From an uncultured Pseudomonadota bacterium (lineage in GTDB: Bacteria; Pseudomonadota; Alphaproteobacteria; Rs-D84; CACZYB01), in contig CAUTSC010000003.1 in NCBI GenBank assembly GCA_963541275.1, forward strand, positions 29,972-93,971: DNA of 64,000 nt, given 5' to 3'. Each line of letters begins with the position of its first letter. Positions within the stretch are counted from its first letter, which is position 1. A program made the translations under genes and the position numbers. This document shows positions 6,338 through 60,931 of the stretch, piece after piece. Under the pieces are notes generated by a model. It was not told the origin of the DNA, did not search any database, and saw nothing but the letters and a program-made list of their open reading frames with translations.

Positions 6338-7426
6338 TTGTTTATGGAAAAAAAAATACCAACAAATGAAAGTATTATAAAACTATCTAAATTGATGGTT
6401 GGTTTTAAAAATGAAGATAGGCTTAAGATTTATTATAAACTTGCTGCACTTCTTGCGAATAAATTTACTTTGATGGATGCTCTTGATCGTATTTGGATGA
6501 TAGAGTCAAAGGATGGTACAAAACCGGATGAACCTATGGCAATTGCAGTTGCTTGGTGGCTTCGTGAACTGGAAAAAGGTTTGCCATTTTCATCTGCGAT
6601 AGAGGGATGGGCGCCTATGCGTGAAAAATTGATGCTATCTGTTGGTGATGTAAGTAAGCTTGAAAAAGCTCTTTTAAATGTTATAAAAGTGTCCGAGGGT
6701 TCCAATAAAATTATACAACCATTATTAAATGCAATAACTTATCCTGTTATGATGATAATGTTAAGTTTGGTTATTATAGTTGGTGTTGGTGTTTATATGG
6801 TTCCACCACTTTTGGAATTTGCCAAGGGGGCGCAGTGGACCGGCAGTGCAAAAAGTTTGGTTTGGCTTTCTGGGTTTGTTAAAGTTTATTGGTGGACTTT
6901 TCCAGTTGTGTTTGGTTCTGTTATGGCTGCTATTTATGTGTCATTTTCTCTTCTTACCGGACCAGTTCGTGTAAAACTTGATAAAATGCCGCCTTGGTCG
7001 CTTTATCGTATGTTTAGTGGTGTGTCATGGCTTATGAGTTTGGCAGCACTGGTTGAATCGGGAACACCTATATCAAAGGCTTTACAATCATTAAGGGGGC
7101 AGGCAAATCCATATTTAAAAGAGAGAATTGATGGTGCTTTATCATTTATGAAAAATGGTGATAATTTAGGAACTGCACTTAAAAAAACGAAAATGAATTT
7201 TCCAGAAACGGAACTTATTGGTGATTTAGAGATTTATTCCGAGCTTGATAATTTTGAAGAAGCGTTAAATTCTGTTGCAAATAATTATTTAAATAACTCT
7301 ATTGCCAATATAAAAAAAGAGGCGAGTTTGTTAAATTCTTTTGCTCTTTTAATAGTAAGTGGTGTTATTGCTTGGGTTCTTTTGGGTGTGTTTGATATGC
7401 AAAACCAAGTACAATCAAACATGTAG
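6338..7426 (+). CDS. pilR: type IV pilus inner-membrane platform protein PilR (GspF/PilC family)
   Basis: Polytopic membrane protein with GspF-like repeats, directly downstream of the ATPase gene. The start is a TTG at 6338 or an ATG at 6344. Confidence 0.85.
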   Translation: MFMEKKIPTNESIIKLSKLMVGFKNEDRLKIYYKLAALLANKFTLMDALDRIWMIESKDGTKPDEPMAIAVAWWLRELEKGLPFSSAIEGWAPMREKLMLSVGDVSKLEKALLNVIKVSEGSNKIIQPLLNAITYPVMMIMLSLVIIVGVGVYMVPPLLEFAKGAQWTGSAKSLVWLSGFVKVYWWTFPVVFGSVMAAIYVSFSLLTGPVRVKLDKMPPWSLYRMFSGVSWLMSLAALVESGTPISKALQSLRGQANPYLKERIDGALSFMKNGDNLGTALKKTKMNFPETELIGDLEIYSELDNFEEALNSVANNYLNNSIANIKKEASLLNSFALLIVSGVIAWVLLGVFDMQNQVQSNM

Positions 7427-42496: not shown

Positions 42497-42520
42497 AAAG
42501 CCTATCAAAGGCTTTTTTTA
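42497..42520 (+). terminator. rho-independent terminator after ssb
   Basis: AAAGCCTatcaaAGGCTTT followed by a T run. Confidence 0.8.
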
Positions 42521-42552
42521 TTTCATAAATAATATAAAAATCATATTTTTTC

Positions 42553-42581
42553 TTGAATAAAACTTTTTAAAATTTTATCAT
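42553..42581 (+). promoter_or_regulatory. family promoter, locus B (TTGAAT-N17-TATCAT)
   Basis: The same architecture and -10 hexamer occur at 49264..49292 and 59269..59297. Confidence 0.55.
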
Positions 42582-42587
42582 ATGACT

Positions 42588-42751
42588 AAACAGGATTTAG
42601 CGATCCTTGTTGTATAAGAGTTAAAAAAAACTCTACAGGTTTTGGAATTCCTACTGTAATGGTAGGAAGGTATGGGAATAGATACAATAATACTATACGC
42701 TATTTTATACAACATAGTCGCTAACTTCCTATCGTAACAGGGAGAGACGAG
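42588..42751 (+). promoter_or_regulatory. conserved structured 5' leader, copy 1 (candidate cis-regulatory RNA)
   Basis: One of three copies of about 165 nt. The long-range helix 42597-42616/42706-42724 shows compensatory changes between copies. The hairpin TTCCTAC-tgtaatg-GTAGGAA (42648-42668) is invariant. CTTCC...GGGAG forms an SD-sequestering hairpin just before the ATG. Confidence 0.6.
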
Positions 42752-43237
42752 ATGAAAAAATCGAAAAACAAGTATGCAATTTTGCTGGGGTTATTGCTTT
42801 GTAAATCCGGTTCTTTTGGTGCAAGCGAGACGACAAAGAAGCTTATACATGAGACGCTTGCAAAATACGGAATAAGTTCCGGTGGTAAGGAAGTTTGCGG
42901 TACGGGACGAGAGCCAGAATATAACAAACAAACAGGAATAGTAAAATGCAAAAACAATGCAGATGGCGACAGTAATAACTGCTGGGATGCAAGTTCCAGA
43001 TTATGTAAAGAATGTCCATCTGGTACAATAGTTAGTTCAAAAGATCACATAACCTGCAGACAAATTGTATGTCCAGATGGATTTGAGCTTAAAGAAATAA
43101 TAAACAACGAATGCCCAGAAGGTTTTGAAATCAAATGGTTTGATGAAACTTGTGATGGAGATACTGATGTCTTTAATGAATCTATGGCAACAAAAAATTA
43201 CACCACTCAATCAACAAATTGTAAAAATGTAAAATAA
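42752..43237 (+). CDS. secreted Cys-rich protein, type 2 (CPxG(F/Y/M)E repeats)
   Basis: Signal peptide and the shared N-terminal motif ETTKKLIHETLAKYGISSGGKEVCG, then CKECPSGT, VCPDGFELK and ECPEGFEIK repeats. It is a paralog of 59470..59988. Confidence 0.75.
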   Translation: MKKSKNKYAILLGLLLCKSGSFGASETTKKLIHETLAKYGISSGGKEVCGTGREPEYNKQTGIVKCKNNADGDSNNCWDASSRLCKECPSGTIVSSKDHITCRQIVCPDGFELKEIINNECPEGFEIKWFDETCDGDTDVFNESMATKNYTTQSTNCKNVK

Positions 43238-43251
43238 AAAAGGAGGAAACT

Positions 43252-44031
43252 ATGAGAAAAAATAAAATAAGTAAATTAGCATTGTTAACAGGCTTGTTAA
43301 TAATAAACACAAACACAAAAGGATTTTATCAATGTGTACCAAAAGAGGATTGGTTGATATATTTCGTTAGAAAGCATCAAGGAACAGAATGGGTTAAAGT
43401 TCTAGATCTTCAAATAAGTTCTCCTTTAGATAAATTTAAAGGATATTTGGAACCTGGAAGATATAGGGTTAAAGCAGCGGGTGCAGGTGGAAAAGAAGAA
43501 AAACGAAGTTTTTATCTTAGACAAAAAGCTGAATTTAAAGCTTGTGTAGGTGCAGGAGGAGGTAATGGGATGAATTATAGTACCTCCAACTGGCCTGGAG
43601 GAGGTGGGGGTGGGGGAGGTAGAGGTTATAGTGGTTATTACTGTGGAGGTACTGGGGGTGGTGGTGGAATTAATACTGGAGGCTGTGCTAGTTGTGGAGG
43701 TAGAGGTTGTAATGGTGGAAATTCTGGAATGAGTGGATTTATCACATTTAGTAGTGTGGGTACTGGTTATGGTGTCGGCTATGGAGGAGAACATGGTGGA
43801 ATCCAAGGTTTATCTCATCGTGGTTATGGTGGTTATGGTTGTTATGGTGGAGGGGGTGGTTCTTCTGGAGATAATAACGGGTTAGGTGGGGGAGGCGGTG
43901 GTGGTGGCGGAAGTTATTTCAAAGTTGGTGATATTGAACTTATTTTAAAAGGTGCTGATGGATCCTATGGCTGGGAAGGTGGTAGTGGTGCAGGCTTTGA
44001 TGGTTATGTAATACTTGAAAAATTGGAGTAA
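43252..44031 (+). CDS. secreted glycine-rich protein (Gly_rich / ALK-LTK GlyR-like candidate)
   Basis: The start is 14 nt after the preceding stop, preceded by an aggagg RBS. It has a signal peptide and the motifs FYQCVPK, GRYRVKAAGAGG and FKACVGAGGG, then multiple poly-G blocks and a C-terminal DGYVILEKLE. It is a paralog of 60008..60931. Confidence 0.75.
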   Translation: MRKNKISKLALLTGLLIINTNTKGFYQCVPKEDWLIYFVRKHQGTEWVKVLDLQISSPLDKFKGYLEPGRYRVKAAGAGGKEEKRSFYLRQKAEFKACVGAGGGNGMNYSTSNWPGGGGGGGGRGYSGYYCGGTGGGGGINTGGCASCGGRGCNGGNSGMSGFITFSSVGTGYGVGYGGEHGGIQGLSHRGYGGYGCYGGGGGSSGDNNGLGGGGGGGGGSYFKVGDIELILKGADGSYGWEGGSGAGFDGYVILEKLE

Positions 44032-49263: not shown

Positions 49264-49292
49264 TTGTATAACAGCTTTTTTTATTTTATCAT
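49264..49292 (+). promoter_or_regulatory. family promoter, locus C (TTGTAT-N17-TATCAT)
   Basis: Same hexamers and spacing as the promoters at loci B and D. Confidence 0.55.
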
Positions 49293-49298
49293 AAAACA

Positions 49299-49460
49299 TA
49301 GATAGAAGGGCGTGACAACCCGTATAATACTGGTGTTAAAGCAATGCTGGCACTATTTTCCTACTGTAATGGTAGGAGGGTGTAGGAATATGCAAGAATA
49401 CTGCACGCTATTTTGTATTATATAGTTGTCAACTTCCTATCGTAAAAAGGGAGAGACGAG
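49299..49460 (+). promoter_or_regulatory. conserved structured 5' leader, copy 2
   Basis: Helix halves TGACAAC (49313-49319)/GTTGTCA (49425-49431) and TATAATAC (49323-49330)/GTATTATA (49415-49422), plus the hairpin 49358-49378. Confidence 0.6.
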
Positions 49461-50315
49461 GTGGAGAACTATATAATTATCAAAAAAAATCTAATCAGAA
49501 TGTTGATTTTATCAATGTTGCCAACTGATGTGTTTTCTGCATCACCAGAAACAAAAAGTTTGATACAAAAAACTTTATCAAAATATTGTATTCCAAATGA
49601 TAAAAGTTTATGTAATACACCAGCAGAGGGTAAATACGATCCTAGTTTATCATTTTGTTTATGTAATGATGGTATGATATGGAATGGAACAGACAGAAAA
49701 TGTAATGATTGTAATGCTGGAACTTACTATAAGCAAAATATGAGAGATAATACATGCAAATCCTGCTCCCCAGGAAGTTATTCATGGTCTGGCGCTTCAA
49801 GTTGTACTTCTTGTTCCCCTGGAACTTATCAACCAAGTAGTGGTCAAGGTAGTTGTTTAAATTGTGATACAAGTAGTTGCTATACAAGTGGAGTTGGTGC
49901 AACAAGTTGTTATTATAGATGTGGAGGTGGGAGTCCATATTGTAATGGTAGTGGTAGTTGTGTAGAATGTACAAGTGATAGTCATTGTAGTGGCAATAGA
50001 ACATGCAGTGGTGGTAATTGTGTATGTAATATAAGTTGTTCGTGTGGAACAAATTATAGTGATTGTAGTTGTGAAAGCTGTCCAAGTTCAAGCAGTGATG
50101 ATAGTGGTTCTTCAGGATCATCAGGTAGTTCAGGTTCAGGTGGAGGCAGTGATTATTGCTCTAAACATCCAGAATCTACAGGTTGTTTAATTACTCATTG
50201 TATAGGTACTTTAGGATTTGGATGTGCGAGTCGTAGAAGAGAGTATGATAAAGCAAGAGGAAATAGTAGTAATAAAGACAAAAAAACTAAAAAACAAAAG
50301 AAGAAGAAAAAATAA
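49461..50315 (+). CDS. secreted Cys-rich repeat protein, type 1 paralog (GTG start, Lys-rich tail)
   Basis: The GTG occupies the same position relative to the gggagagacgag RBS as the ATG at the other loci. It has the same N-terminal motif and CxxCxxG(S/T)Y repeats as 37373..38281, and a C-terminal KKTKKQKKKKK. Confidence 0.72.
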   Translation: MENYIIIKKNLIRMLILSMLPTDVFSASPETKSLIQKTLSKYCIPNDKSLCNTPAEGKYDPSLSFCLCNDGMIWNGTDRKCNDCNAGTYYKQNMRDNTCKSCSPGSYSWSGASSCTSCSPGTYQPSSGQGSCLNCDTSSCYTSGVGATSCYYRCGGGSPYCNGSGSCVECTSDSHCSGNRTCSGGNCVCNISCSCGTNYSDCSCESCPSSSSDDSGSSGSSGSSGSGGGSDYCSKHPESTGCLITHCIGTLGFGCASRRREYDKARGNSSNKDKKTKKQKKKKK

Positions 50316-59268: not shown

Positions 59269-59297
59269 TTGTATAAAAATCTATTTAGTATTATCAT
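59269..59297 (+). promoter_or_regulatory. family promoter, locus D (TTGTAT-N17-TATCAT)
   Basis: Same hexamers and spacing as the promoters at loci B and C. Confidence 0.55.
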
Positions 59298-59303
59298 GAA
59301 AGT

Positions 59304-59469
59304 AAATGAAAGGGTGTAGCAACCCTATTGTGTATTGATGTTAAAATGACCTAGTAAGGGTTAGGGATTCCTACTGTAATGGTAGGAAGGTGTAGGAATA
59401 TAGAAGAATACTATACACTATTTTACACAATATAGTTGCTAACTTCCTATCGTAACAGGGAGAGATGAG
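59304..59469 (+). promoter_or_regulatory. conserved structured 5' leader, copy 3
   Basis: Helix halves TAGCAAC (59317-59323)/GTTGCTA (59435-59441) and TATTGTGTA (59326-59334)/TACACAATA (59424-59432). The hairpin is at 59368-59388. CTTCC (59443-59447) can pair with the SD GGGAG (59458-59462). Confidence 0.6.
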
Positions 59470-59988
59470 ATGAAAAACTATATAAAAAATCATGGCAAAA
59501 TTTTGCTGTTTGCTAGTGTTTGTTTATTTTCGCACAAAGCATTTTCTGCATCGCCAGAAACTTTAGAGTTAATTCACAAAACTCTTGCAAAATATGGAAT
59601 AAGTGCTGGAGGTAAGGAAGTTTGCGGAAAAGATACTGAACCAATTTGTAATGAACCAGGATGTAAAGTGAAATGCAACAGGTATGGTGCAAACAACTAT
59701 TGGTCGCCAAGTGATAGGTTATGTAAAAGCTGTCCAGTTGGAACAATACTCAACAAAACAACATTTCAAAGTTGCAATCAAGTTGTGTGTCCGGATGGTA
59801 CAACTGGGATAAAAGTAAGTGGTGGAAATTGTCCCGCAGGAATGGATTTATTCGCCCCAAGTAAAGGAATCTGCCCAGAGGGATACGAGTTAAAGAAAAT
59901 CACAAATGGAAAATGCCCGGATGGAATGGAGTTGATAGATTTAAGAAATAGCTGTCCAGCTGGATACGAAATGTTTAAACAATCATAA
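59470..59988 (+). CDS. secreted Cys-rich protein, type 2 paralog
   Basis: Signal peptide and the motif ETLELIHKTLAKYGISAGGKEVCG, then the repeats CPVGT, VCPDGTTG, NCPAGMDL, ICPEGYELK, KCPDGMELI and SCPAGYEMF. Confidence 0.75.
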   Translation: MKNYIKNHGKILLFASVCLFSHKAFSASPETLELIHKTLAKYGISAGGKEVCGKDTEPICNEPGCKVKCNRYGANNYWSPSDRLCKSCPVGTILNKTTFQSCNQVVCPDGTTGIKVSGGNCPAGMDLFAPSKGICPEGYELKKITNGKCPDGMELIDLRNSCPAGYEMFKQS

Positions 59989-60007: not shown

Positions 60008-60931
60008 ATGATAAAAAAACAAATAAGTAAAATAAGTATGCTTGCAAGCTTGCTTGTGGCGAGCACAATCAACGCTCAAGAATTTTATACCTGCGTGCCA
60101 AAGAAAAGTTGGTGGAAAGATGTTATGACAGAAAGTGTTGAAAAAGGTATAAGAAAAGGAAATTTAAAAGGTGTATGGAAAAAGATTATACACCTTACAC
60201 CTACTTCTCCACTAAAAGATTTTCAACAACCATTATATATAGGCAAATATAGATTAACAGCCGCTGCAGCAGGAGGAAGTGAGGAAATAAGGTATTTTAA
60301 TCTTGATAAAGAAACAGAATTTAAAGCCTGTGTTGGAGCAGGTGGGGGAGGAGGTGGTGGTGGCAACAGATTCAGTGGCTACTGCGGCGGCGGCGGAGGC
60401 GGCGGTGGTGGACGGGGTTATGGAGGATACTACAGTGGAGGAAACGGCGGTAGCAGTAGCGGCGGTAGCGGAGGTTATGGTATAGGTGGTGAAGGTGGAA
60501 GCGGCGGCTTCTCCTACGCTCACGAAGTAAAAAGTGGCAGGACCGGTAAAGGAGGCAAAGGTGGCGGTAGTGGTGGCAATGGCAGTGATAGCAGCGAATC
60601 TGGTGGCCACAACCTCAGCATCGGGAACGAATATGGTAGTAGTGGCAAAGGCTATGGTAAAGGCGTAGGTGGCAAAGGCGGCAACATGAAAAACGACATC
60701 AACATGGGTGGTGGTGGTGGTGGAAGCGGCTGTGGCGGCGGTGGAGGTGGAGGAAGCTTCAACCACTCTGGATACGGAGGCGCTGGCGGCGGCGGTGGTG
60801 GAAGTTATTTTCAAGTTGCAGATGTTGAATTGGTGTTAAAAGGTGGGGATGGAAAACCTGCTGATGGATATAATGGTGGTGGGGATGGTGCTGGTCCTGA
60901 TGGATATGTAATAGTTGAAAAAATGGAATAA
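60008..60931 (+). CDS. secreted glycine-rich protein paralog (Gly_rich / GlyR-like candidate)
   Basis: Signal peptide and the motifs FYTCVPK, GKYRLTAAAAGG and FKACVGAGGGGGGGG, then extensive poly-G/S blocks and a C-terminal DGYVIVEKME. It is locally GC-rich because of GGC/GGT codons. Confidence 0.75.
   Translation: MIKKQISKISMLASLLVASTINAQEFYTCVPKKSWWKDVMTESVEKGIRKGNLKGVWKKIIHLTPTSPLKDFQQPLYIGKYRLTAAAAGGSEEIRYFNLDKETEFKACVGAGGGGGGGGNRFSGYCGGGGGGGGGRGYGGYYSGGNGGSSSGGSGGYGIGGEGGSGGFSYAHEVKSGRTGKGGKGGGSGGNGSDSSESGGHNLSIGNEYGSSGKGYGKGVGGKGGNMKNDINMGGGGGGSGCGGGGGGGSFNHSGYGGAGGGGGGSYFQVADVELVLKGGDGKPADGYNGGGDGAGPDGYVIVEKME

Follow-up and report, generated by a model that had tools for sequence, protein, structure and literature searches.

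A putative two-state leader RNA related to phage sRNA-Xcc1 precedes three genes for secreted cysteine-rich proteins in a bacterial chromosome

The 64,000-nucleotide (nt) stretch of contig CAUTSC010000003.1 analysed here (hereafter the window; G+C content 31.5%), from an uncultured alphaproteobacterium, carries on its + strand three copies of a unit made of a promoter and a structured leader, each ahead of a gene for a secreted cysteine-rich (Cys-rich) protein. We found that these leaders accommodate two mutually exclusive folds: a four-way junction closed by a long-range helix (Fold A), and a three-way junction of the 3' 71-73 nt (Fold B) that resembles the small RNA (sRNA) family sRNA-Xcc1 (Rfam RF02221). 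It is well supported that the window leaders are diverged chromosomal relatives of a phage sRNA-Xcc1-type leader RNA that fall below threshold in Rfam, and we hold the structural part and this ancestry with good confidence. More tentatively, as a plausible rather than a secure reading, we interpret the leader as a two-state, self-antisense translational 5' untranslated region descended from the phage type.

The three units share one layout. A preliminary description of the sequence had listed a common TTG(A/T)AT-N17-TATCAT promoter, leaders of 162-166 nt and three genes for secreted Cys-rich proteins, and all of these were present where it had placed them, the genes being paralogous and starting with ATG at 42752 (copy 1), GTG at 49461 (copy 2) and ATG at 59470 (copy 3). 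The distance from the -10 box to the start codon is 170, 168 and 172 nt, respectively, which gives a leader of ~162-166 nt if transcription begins 6-8 nt 3' of the box. The 20-mer TTCCTACTGTAATGGTAGGA has three exact occurrences in the window, as compared with 0 in 100 shuffles. For comparison, we assembled a set of 10 distinct leaders, i.e., the three window copies (c1, c2 and c3) and seven from ENA metagenome contigs (L003; L004, same as L005; L006, same as L007; L010; L011; L012; and L013). The promoter CTTG(T/A)ATAAAA...TAT(C/T)AT stands ahead of all 10, with its spacing to the 5' arm also kept; in the seven outside leaders, it takes the form CTTGTATAAAA..TAT(C/T)AT and the leader measures 164-198 nt.

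In Fold A, a closing helix P1, composed of P1a (7 pairs) and P1b (8-10 pairs), encloses a variable branch P2, the hairpin P3 (UUCCUAC/GUAGGAA) and the hairpin P4 (GURURG/CURYRC). Folding of single sequences yielded a four-way junction with z-scores of -3.98, -2.57 and -3.03 for copies 1, 2 and 3, and reproduced the long-range helix in copies 1 and 3; Fold A was the minimum-energy or a near-minimum-energy fold in eight of nine leaders. Because MAFFT misplaced P1b, we made structural alignments (A4 and A7, N-padded) by hand; the counts for P3 are slightly lowered in A4 by a 3-nt misparse of the P3 strand of L006. Across the 10 leaders in A4, 96.3% of 326 cells pair, versus 84.8% in shuffles, a level that none of 500 shuffles reached. 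Both sides have changed in 12 of the 34 pairs, and the covariation score of 0.407 was reached by no shuffle (0.195 in shuffles, at most 0.113 with slid partners). The long-range helix holds 11 of these 12 covarying pairs (8 of 10 in P1b, where a single position shows up to five pair types, and 3 in P1a), and P4 holds one. P3 and P0, an alternative pairing of the 5' AGGA, display no covariation, only C-to-U changes that yield G-U pairs, and neither the sequence nor the length of P2 is conserved. The pairing and covariation tests thus support the functional + strand RNA fold of the preliminary description, and its compensatory base changes hold in the larger set.

Two of the smaller claims changed in the larger set. 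The hairpin TTCCTAC-loop-GTAGGAA, described as invariant, is so inside the window, but its loop varies in the relatives (TGCAAG, TTAAAAG, TGTAAG or a 16-nt loop), where the stem sequence is fixed except that in L004 C-to-U changes lead to G-U pairs. The short local stem of the 5' arm (AGGAU/AUCCU, AGGG/CCCU) is likewise real, but it competes with the long-range helix instead of sitting beside it, because its loop is the 5' strand of P1a. Its pairing is kept in the relatives (AGGG/CCCU, GAGG/CCUU) and in phage members (GAAG/CUUC, AAGG/CCUU, GAGG/CCUC).

Since G-U pairs are frequent in the helices of Fold A and R1, a covariance model of Fold B that we built from the 10 leaders, gives only 14-16 bits on the reverse strand, the RNA can be assigned to the + strand. 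The same pairs speak against a purely DNA-level element, in which the repeated inverted repeat would serve as an operator, an attC-like recombination site or a transposon end without RNA function. Such an element would fit the perfect DNA palindrome TTCCTAC-N7-GTAGGAA, the occurrence of TTCCTACTGTAATGGTAGGA in an unrelated Clostridia genome (L001), within the promoter of an Rrf2-family gene, and, going by the title of a 2011 paper by Chen et al. that PMC12189769 cites, the first finding of sRNA-Xcc1 in an integron cassette. Yet many of the + strand G-U pairs would be A-C mismatches on the opposite strand, the element keeps a fixed place between a conserved promoter and the start codon in 10/10 leaders, and its helix sequences vary freely with compensation, unlike repeats that are recognised by proteins. 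The P1a strands also misfit the attC core consensus, with c1 and L004 lacking AAC/GTT, and overall we regard a DNA-level element as very improbable. In L001 (positions 7330-7349, an Anaerovoracaceae metagenome-assembled genome), TTCCTACTGTAATGGTAGGA is flanked by a TTGACT box and by the ribosome-binding site of the Rrf2-family regulator gene, and is probably an unrelated operator palindrome. It is one of two exact matches of the 20-mer in genome contigs, both in Clostridia metagenome-assembled genomes and both judged to be chance, the other lying in a repeat array (L002); a gapped core pattern likewise returned two chance matches in metagenome contigs, a collection from which the lineage is seemingly absent.

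Fold B consists of a closing helix, a hairpin 1 with an AAUAC loop and a hairpin 2 (RCUAU/AUAGU), and could be drawn on 10/10 leaders. Over 13 sequences, comprising the 10 leaders and three phage sequences that include two bona fide RF02221 members, 98.8% of cells pair and both sides have changed in 9 of 20 pairs, which 0 of 500 shuffles reached. Folds A and B cannot coexist, because GUAGGAA is common to P3 and the closing helix, the 3' strand of P1b is the loop of hairpin 2, and the 3' strand of P1a overlaps the 3' strand of hairpin 2.

Fold B also accounts for bases that Fold A leaves unexplained. Several segments are invariant yet unpaired in Fold A, namely RCUAU downstream of P4, AUAG ahead of the 3' strand of P1a, the G that precedes GUAGGAA and the AUC that follows CUUCCU, and all such segments pair in Fold B, with the exception of the GGAAUA..AAUAC loop of hairpin 1, which is common with sRNA-Xcc1. 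These bases weaken the riboswitch-like reading that the preliminary description had implied, in which the four-way junction (P1-P4) would be the aptamer for a metabolite or ion, and the ligand would stabilise P1/P0 and control the Shine-Dalgarno sequence via CUUCCU. A covarying closing helix, conserved junction and hairpin sequences, an adjacent anti-Shine-Dalgarno-like strand and the lack of a known Rfam family at threshold would all suit a riboswitch; no known riboswitch aptamer model matched in the window at threshold. However, the conserved "junction" bases, including RCUAU, AUAG and CUUCCUAUC, are fully accounted for as Fold B pairs, which makes a ligand pocket unnecessary. The phage relatives keep P1a/P1b/P3 and Fold B, not the junction sequences, the copy-specific P1a/P1b within one genome would be expected for antisense specificity and are not needed for an aptamer, and the downstream secreted proteins have no metabolic theme. 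Translational riboswitch and RNA-thermometer platforms remain alike in design, in that an alternative helix can tie up a pyrimidine strand (here CUUCCU) beside the Shine-Dalgarno sequence; they differ in that the conserved bases are here explained by RNA-RNA alternatives and that the phage relatives use antisense pairing. For these last two reasons, a metabolite riboswitch is now distinctly unlikely.

The connection to sRNA-Xcc1 runs through a prophage. A cmscan of the whole window at the gathering threshold gave only three tRNAs, and at E up to 10 the region 42500-42800 gave only noise and no RF02221 (best mir-7, SmY and malK-II at 14-19 bits, far sub-threshold). The RNA is therefore unrecognised, as it had been called, in the sense that no Rfam family is found at gathering score, but it is not an unrelated class. 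A scan of viral contigs with GGTAGGARGGTRTRGRAATA returned one locus, on the 57-kb prophage-like contig L014, whose positions 1520-1745 show the architecture of the window leaders with other helix sequences: a local hairpin GAAG/CUUC, P1a CUGAAAAAC/GUUUUUCAG, P1b UACACU/AGUGUA and then GGUAGGAAGGUGUGGAAAUACCCAAUACCACAC .. CUUCCUAUC. The 20-nt pattern alone could be matched by chance; the exact AAUAC and CUUCCUAUC at the right distances together with a complementary arm could not. Model R1 finds this leader (L014 1635-1700) at 51.5 bits (E 5e-9), with hairpin 2 compensated to GCCGU/GCGGU. Against RF02221, L014 1635-1708 scores 29.9 bits (gathering score 53), and the cmscan alignment pairs GGUAGGAAG with CUUCCUAUC. 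Bona fide RF02221 members are found in the same contig (L014 503-586, 69.7 bits) and in the Vibrio phage Va_90-11-287_p41 (L016 1331-1419, 61.4 bits). The three phage leaders align along their entire length, and L014 1635-1700 is a paralog of the bona fide copies. Neither of the two bona fide copies is recovered by R1 at E up to 10, and blastn against phage records found no match for a window leader or for L014 1500-1745.

The window leaders have in common with RF02221 (an 87-nt model) the three-way junction, the 9-bp purine-rich/pyrimidine-rich closing helix, a first hairpin with an AAUAC-containing loop, a short second hairpin and a 6-7-nt linker before the closing strand. With the phage RF02221 leaders they further share an upstream arm complementary to the hairpin 2 loop and linker, a local hairpin that shows part of this arm, and a pyrimidine stretch that competes for the 5' strand of the closing helix. 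The differences are that the window copies are unmatched by RF02221 even at E up to 10, the link being via L014 1635-1700 only; that their hairpin 1 is shorter; that their setting is chromosomal, near ssb, engB and DUF2155, and not a phage or an integron; that they precede secreted Cys-rich genes instead of antirepressors, with the module adjoining the Shine-Dalgarno sequence; and that they are missing both the NCCC tail that follows the closing helix in phage members and the second arm copy that phage members carry at the ribosome-binding site.

This second arm copy points to a logic for the phage members. With the pattern AATACAAYACCCN{3,8}GGAAATAA, we collected 118 viral loci with 79 distinct modules (L018 onward). 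The seed, i.e., hairpin 2 plus linker, has an exact complement of at least 7 nt upstream in 66/79 of these (versus 15% for shuffled seeds) and downstream in 67/79 (versus 11%), and the downstream site ends at a median of 11 nt before the predicted start codon, within -25 to +5 in 56 of 76. In L016, UUCGAAAAAACAAGGAAAAC directly before the start codon repeats the arm sequences UCGAAAC and CAAGGAAA, and such a recurrence is also seen in L014 1635-1708 and L014 503-586; the leaders with this arm/target pattern occupy L014 395-630, L014 1528-1745 and L016 1205-1453. Nine of 10 sampled downstream phage proteins are of antirepressor type (Bro-N, KilA-N, P22_AR_N or Phage_pRha). By analogy, phage sRNA-Xcc1 would be an antisense module that has a decoy copy upstream and whose target lies at an antirepressor gene's ribosome-binding site, in a design that resembles P1 c4; we did not find this target logic stated in the papers on the family that we consulted. 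In APSE phages, a copy of sRNA-Xcc1 lies upstream of an ORF6N protein gene (bioRxiv 10.1101/2020.03.17.996009).

C4 antisense RNA regulates Ant (PMC8201110), and a c4-a1b1 motif is listed in PMC2864571. The c4 RNA of phages P1/P7 (RF01695) is similar in design to the window leaders, in that the antisense RNA is encoded in the leader of the gene that it controls, its two exposed segments have one matching site upstream of the RNA itself and another in the ribosome-binding region of the antirepressor operon, and these short segments set the specificity. The P1 c4 design reportedly comprises a1/b1, a'/b' and a2/b2 sites. Ribonuclease P releases P1 c4 from its leader by processing, a step that has no evident counterpart here; the window lineage differs further in having only the upstream (a1/b1-like) site. 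The RF01695 model matched neither in the window nor in L014-L017. Two side observations concern the phage loci. In 37/79 phage leaders, as against 3/79 in a coding-region control, the motif GCGG-loop-CCGC-ACCCGACAG..GCGG-UUUUUU (e.g., L014 ~430-470) occurs ~42 nt upstream of the module; this hairpin with a U-run separates the decoy arm from the module and may be a terminator/antiterminator; the window lineage lacks it. In the Salmonella phage Emek (L015 1398-1463), sar RNA (RF00262, 61.7 bits) lies antisense directly upstream of ant, and is a third, unrelated antisense solution for antirepressor control.

We propose that the window leaders use these parts in cis. The 3' 71-73 nt can by themselves fold into the Fold B junction. 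The loop of hairpin 2 and the linker are complementary to the 5' arm of the same transcript; upon their pairing (P1a and P1b, 16-17 bp) and the capture of GUAGGAA by the upstream UUCCUAC to form P3, the module is unfolded into the four-way junction of Fold A. The coupling device would be CUUCCUAUC: locked in the closing helix in Fold B, it would leave the Shine-Dalgarno sequence free, and upon release in Fold A it could either pair with the 5' AGGG or occlude the Shine-Dalgarno sequence. The balance of the two folds would then set translation of the operon for the Cys-rich and glycine-rich (Gly-rich) proteins, and could be shifted by processing or by a free module or arm that acts in trans in a copy-specific manner. 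That translation is the output is inferred, as are the direction of the effect and the trigger of the switch. In the output region, AACUUCCUAU is invariant in 10/10 leaders, and in copy 1 CUUCCU is complementary to AGGGAG of the Shine-Dalgarno region. In 7/10 leaders, a complementary Shine-Dalgarno sequence (GGGAGAG, AGGAGGAAG or GGGGAAGG) follows CUUCCUAUC at a distance of 6-10 nt; the remaining three have a small hairpin, CGCUAA-loop-UUAGUG, between the two (L006 744-779, L012 597-632, L013 276-311), which lengthens the spacer from ~8 to ~35 nt. In the Fold A predictions, CUUCCU pairs with the Shine-Dalgarno sequence in L003, L004, L006, L010 and L012.

Several observations weigh against this proposal. 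The Fold A predictions pair CUUCCU with the 5' AGGG, rather than with the Shine-Dalgarno sequence, in c1, c2, c3 and L013, and the complementarity itself counts for little, because any purine-rich Shine-Dalgarno sequence is complementary to CUUCCU. Predicted accessibility of the Shine-Dalgarno sequence, at 0.31-0.91 in constrained Fold A and 0.18-0.81 in constrained Fold B, showed no consistent difference. On the full-length leader, the stability of Fold B falls 2.5-15 kcal/mol short of that of Fold A, and Fold B may need processing or a trans partner; its covariation mostly reflects one split, between the window lineage and the three phage sequences. None of nine leaders tested repeats the arm sequence at the ribosome-binding site in the way that phage members do. 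Lastly, all seven outside leaders were reached via homologues of one protein, the 161-residue product of copy 1, which limits the view of the genes that such leaders serve. Duplex energies of the seed with the ribosome-binding region were no better than those of shuffled seeds in 8/10 leaders.

The pairing between seed and arm is specific to each copy. The P1a/P1b sequences of the three window copies do not match one another, and the seeds prefer their own arm, with -17 to -22 kcal/mol, versus -5 to -14 with the arms of other copies; for copy 1, the value is -22.1 kcal/mol with its own arm and -9.7 and -10.2 with those of copies 2 and 3. The covariation of the long-range helix, real as it is, would be equally expected of an antisense/target pair. 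Because it cannot tell intra- from intermolecular pairing, a processed RNA that acts in trans stays a serious rival, albeit one that we judge rather improbable: the 3' module would accumulate as a stable RNA of ~70-85 nt and act elsewhere, the 5' arm would be a decoy that masks the seed up to the moment of processing, and the Cys-rich gene would merely be co-transcribed. The module alone folds into the three-way junction of the family, and P1 c4, released from its own leader by processing, offers a parallel. Published work views sRNA-Xcc1 as a small RNA tied to virulence: it was first described in Xanthomonas campestris, as an independent RNA of 88 nt whose ends were mapped (PMC2996969), and seven copies are expressed in Xylella, one of them beside c4 and isrK (PMC12189769). 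Against a trans-acting RNA, the 64-kb window offers no other good seed-pairing site beyond the own arm and the trivial opposite strand, there is no downstream target at the ribosome-binding site, and in the window lineage the module has neither a conserved internal promoter nor a conserved terminator on its flanks. Furthermore, the module adjoins the Shine-Dalgarno sequence of the next gene with the invariant AACUUCCUAU, and therefore a role in cis is favoured.

The leaders could also bind a protein. In such a leader, GGA motifs (UAGGAAGG, RGGAAUA in the loop of hairpin 1, and GGGAGAG) would be CsrA/RsmA-like or Hfq-like sites for control of translation or stability. Several of these motifs are conserved, among them one within a hairpin loop and another at the Shine-Dalgarno sequence, and "signatures for Hfq binding" were reported for sRNA-Xcc1 homologues in Xylella (PMC12189769). 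The competing helices explain the GGA motifs without a protein, though, and no CsrA/RsmA- or Hfq-like gene turned up in the window, where no search was aimed at such genes. We consider a protein-binding leader unlikely.

A few other candidate features of the leaders were set aside. The sequence AACUAUAU, at codons 3-5 of the conserved N-terminus MKNYIK, is complementary to the invariant leader segment AUAUAGUU in 6/10 leaders (window positions 59476-59483 and 49470-49477, L004 as AACUACGU, L010, L011 and L012); the other four (c1, L003, L006 and L013) lack it, and in duplex energy it does not surpass shuffled seeds. An upstream open reading frame might be read from an AUG within the copy 1 GUAUGG, which opens a frame of 21 codons, but in most homologues GURURG contains no AUG, and a triplet pattern is lacking. 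Within the P3 loop, TGTAAT is -10-like and might suggest an internal promoter for the module, but it is not conserved (TGCAAG, TTAAAAG). No intrinsic terminator is conserved inside the leaders of the window lineage, though 37/79 phage members have one.

Regarding the genomic setting, a terminator-like hairpin at 42497-42515 closes the upstream ssb gene, and copy 1 is thus its own transcription unit. Since the genes that flank the copies are housekeeping genes (ssb, an engB-type GTPase, DUF2155 and rpoB/rpoC), the context is chromosomal, with no prophage; in the relative L010, engB lies upstream of the leader, as for copy 2. The downstream Cys-rich proteins are paralogs with a signal-peptide-like N-terminus, an ET.KLI..TL.KY block and Cys-rich ephrin-receptor-like repeats in common. 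Ephrin_rec_like, on the copy 2 protein, is the sole Pfam match among the downstream proteins, NCBIfam models matched none of them, and none of the 41 homologues of the 161-residue protein bears a name. The second genes of copies 1 and 3 encode secreted-looking products with long glycine runs (GGGGGGG, GYGG) and no Pfam or NCBIfam match. All coordinates are collected in Table 1.

Table 1. Positions of the leader elements and of the genes that follow them, numbered from the first letter of the window.
Feature	Copy	Position	Strand	Details
Promoter	1	42553-42581	+	TTGAAT 42553-42558, 17-nt spacer, TATCAT 42576-42581
Promoter	2	49264-49292	+	TTGTAT-N17-TATCAT
Promoter	3	59269-59297	+	TTGTAT-N17-TATCAT
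Leader	1	42582-42751	+	
Leader	2	49293-49460	+	
Leader	3	59298-59469	+	
Local hairpin of 5' arm	1	42592-42607	+	AGGAU 42592-42596 with AUCCU 42603-42607; loop shows UAGCGAU 42598-42604 (P1a 5' strand)
P0 (alternative pairing)	1			5' AGGA with UCCU 42727-42730
Long-range helix, 5' strands	1	42598-42616	+	P1a UAGCGAU 42598-42604, internal loop CCU, P1b UGUUGUAUA 42608-42616
P2 region	1	42617-42647	+	hairpin AGAGUU-loop-AACUCU 42617-42634 plus linker
P3 hairpin	1	42648-42668	+	UUCCUAC 42648-42654, loop, GUAGGAA 42662-42668
Long-range helix, 3' strands (seed)	1	42706-42723	+	P1b UAUACAACA 42706-42714 (hairpin 2 loop), P1a GUCGCUA 42717-42723
P1a	2	49313-49319, 49425-49431	+	UGACAAC with GUUGUCA
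P1b	2	49323-49330, 49415-49422	+	UAUAAUAC with GUAUUAUA
P1a	3	59317-59323, 59435-59441	+	UAGCAAC with GUUGCUA
P1b	3	59326-59334, 59424-59432	+	UAUUGUGUA with UACACAAUA
sRNA-Xcc1-like module	1	42661-42733	+	R1 81.5 bits
sRNA-Xcc1-like module	2	49371-49441	+	R1 87.4 bits
sRNA-Xcc1-like module	3	59381-59451	+	R1 87.8 bits
Fold B closing helix	1	42661-42669, 42725-42733	+	GGUAGGAAG with CUUCCUAUC
Fold B hairpin 1 (= P4)	1	42670-42675, 42693-42698	+	GUAUGG with CUAUAC, loop GAAUA..AAUA
Fold B hairpin 2	1	42699-42703, 42714-42718	+	GCUAU with AUAGU; linker CGCUAA
Output region	1	42725-42751	+	CUUCCUAUC 42725-42733, 6-nt spacer, Shine-Dalgarno GGGAGAG 42740-42746, start codon 42752
Shine-Dalgarno	2	49449-49455	+	
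Shine-Dalgarno	3	59458-59464	+	
Secreted Cys-rich protein	1	42752-43237	+	161 aa
Gly-rich protein, second gene	1	43252-44031	+	259 aa
Cys-rich protein (Ephrin_rec_like)	2	start 49461 (GTG)	+	284 aa
Cys-rich protein	3	start 59470	+	172 aa
Gly-rich protein, second gene	3	60008-60931	+	

The scope of these findings is modest, as they concern a narrow lineage and an output step that we infer. Within it, an apparent orphan leader becomes a testable system with two exclusive folds, one coupling strand and three orthogonal copies in one genome, the sRNA-Xcc1 family is extended to a low-G+C chromosomal lineage out of reach of the Rfam model and to a new class of genes, and a concrete mechanism for the family in phages is obtained as a by-product. 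A broader scenario, which we offer as speculation and regard as doubtful, is that a phage immunity-type antisense leader was taken over by a low-G+C chromosome and multiplied to at least three orthogonal, self-recognising RNA switches, and that the whole sRNA-Xcc1 family forms a second, widespread c4-like class of antirepressor control. In this scenario, the free module or arm of one transcript would flip only transcripts of the same copy, and the result would be copy-specific, possibly bistable on/off expression of secreted Cys-rich and Gly-rich surface or effector proteins, an RNA-based behavior akin to phase variation.

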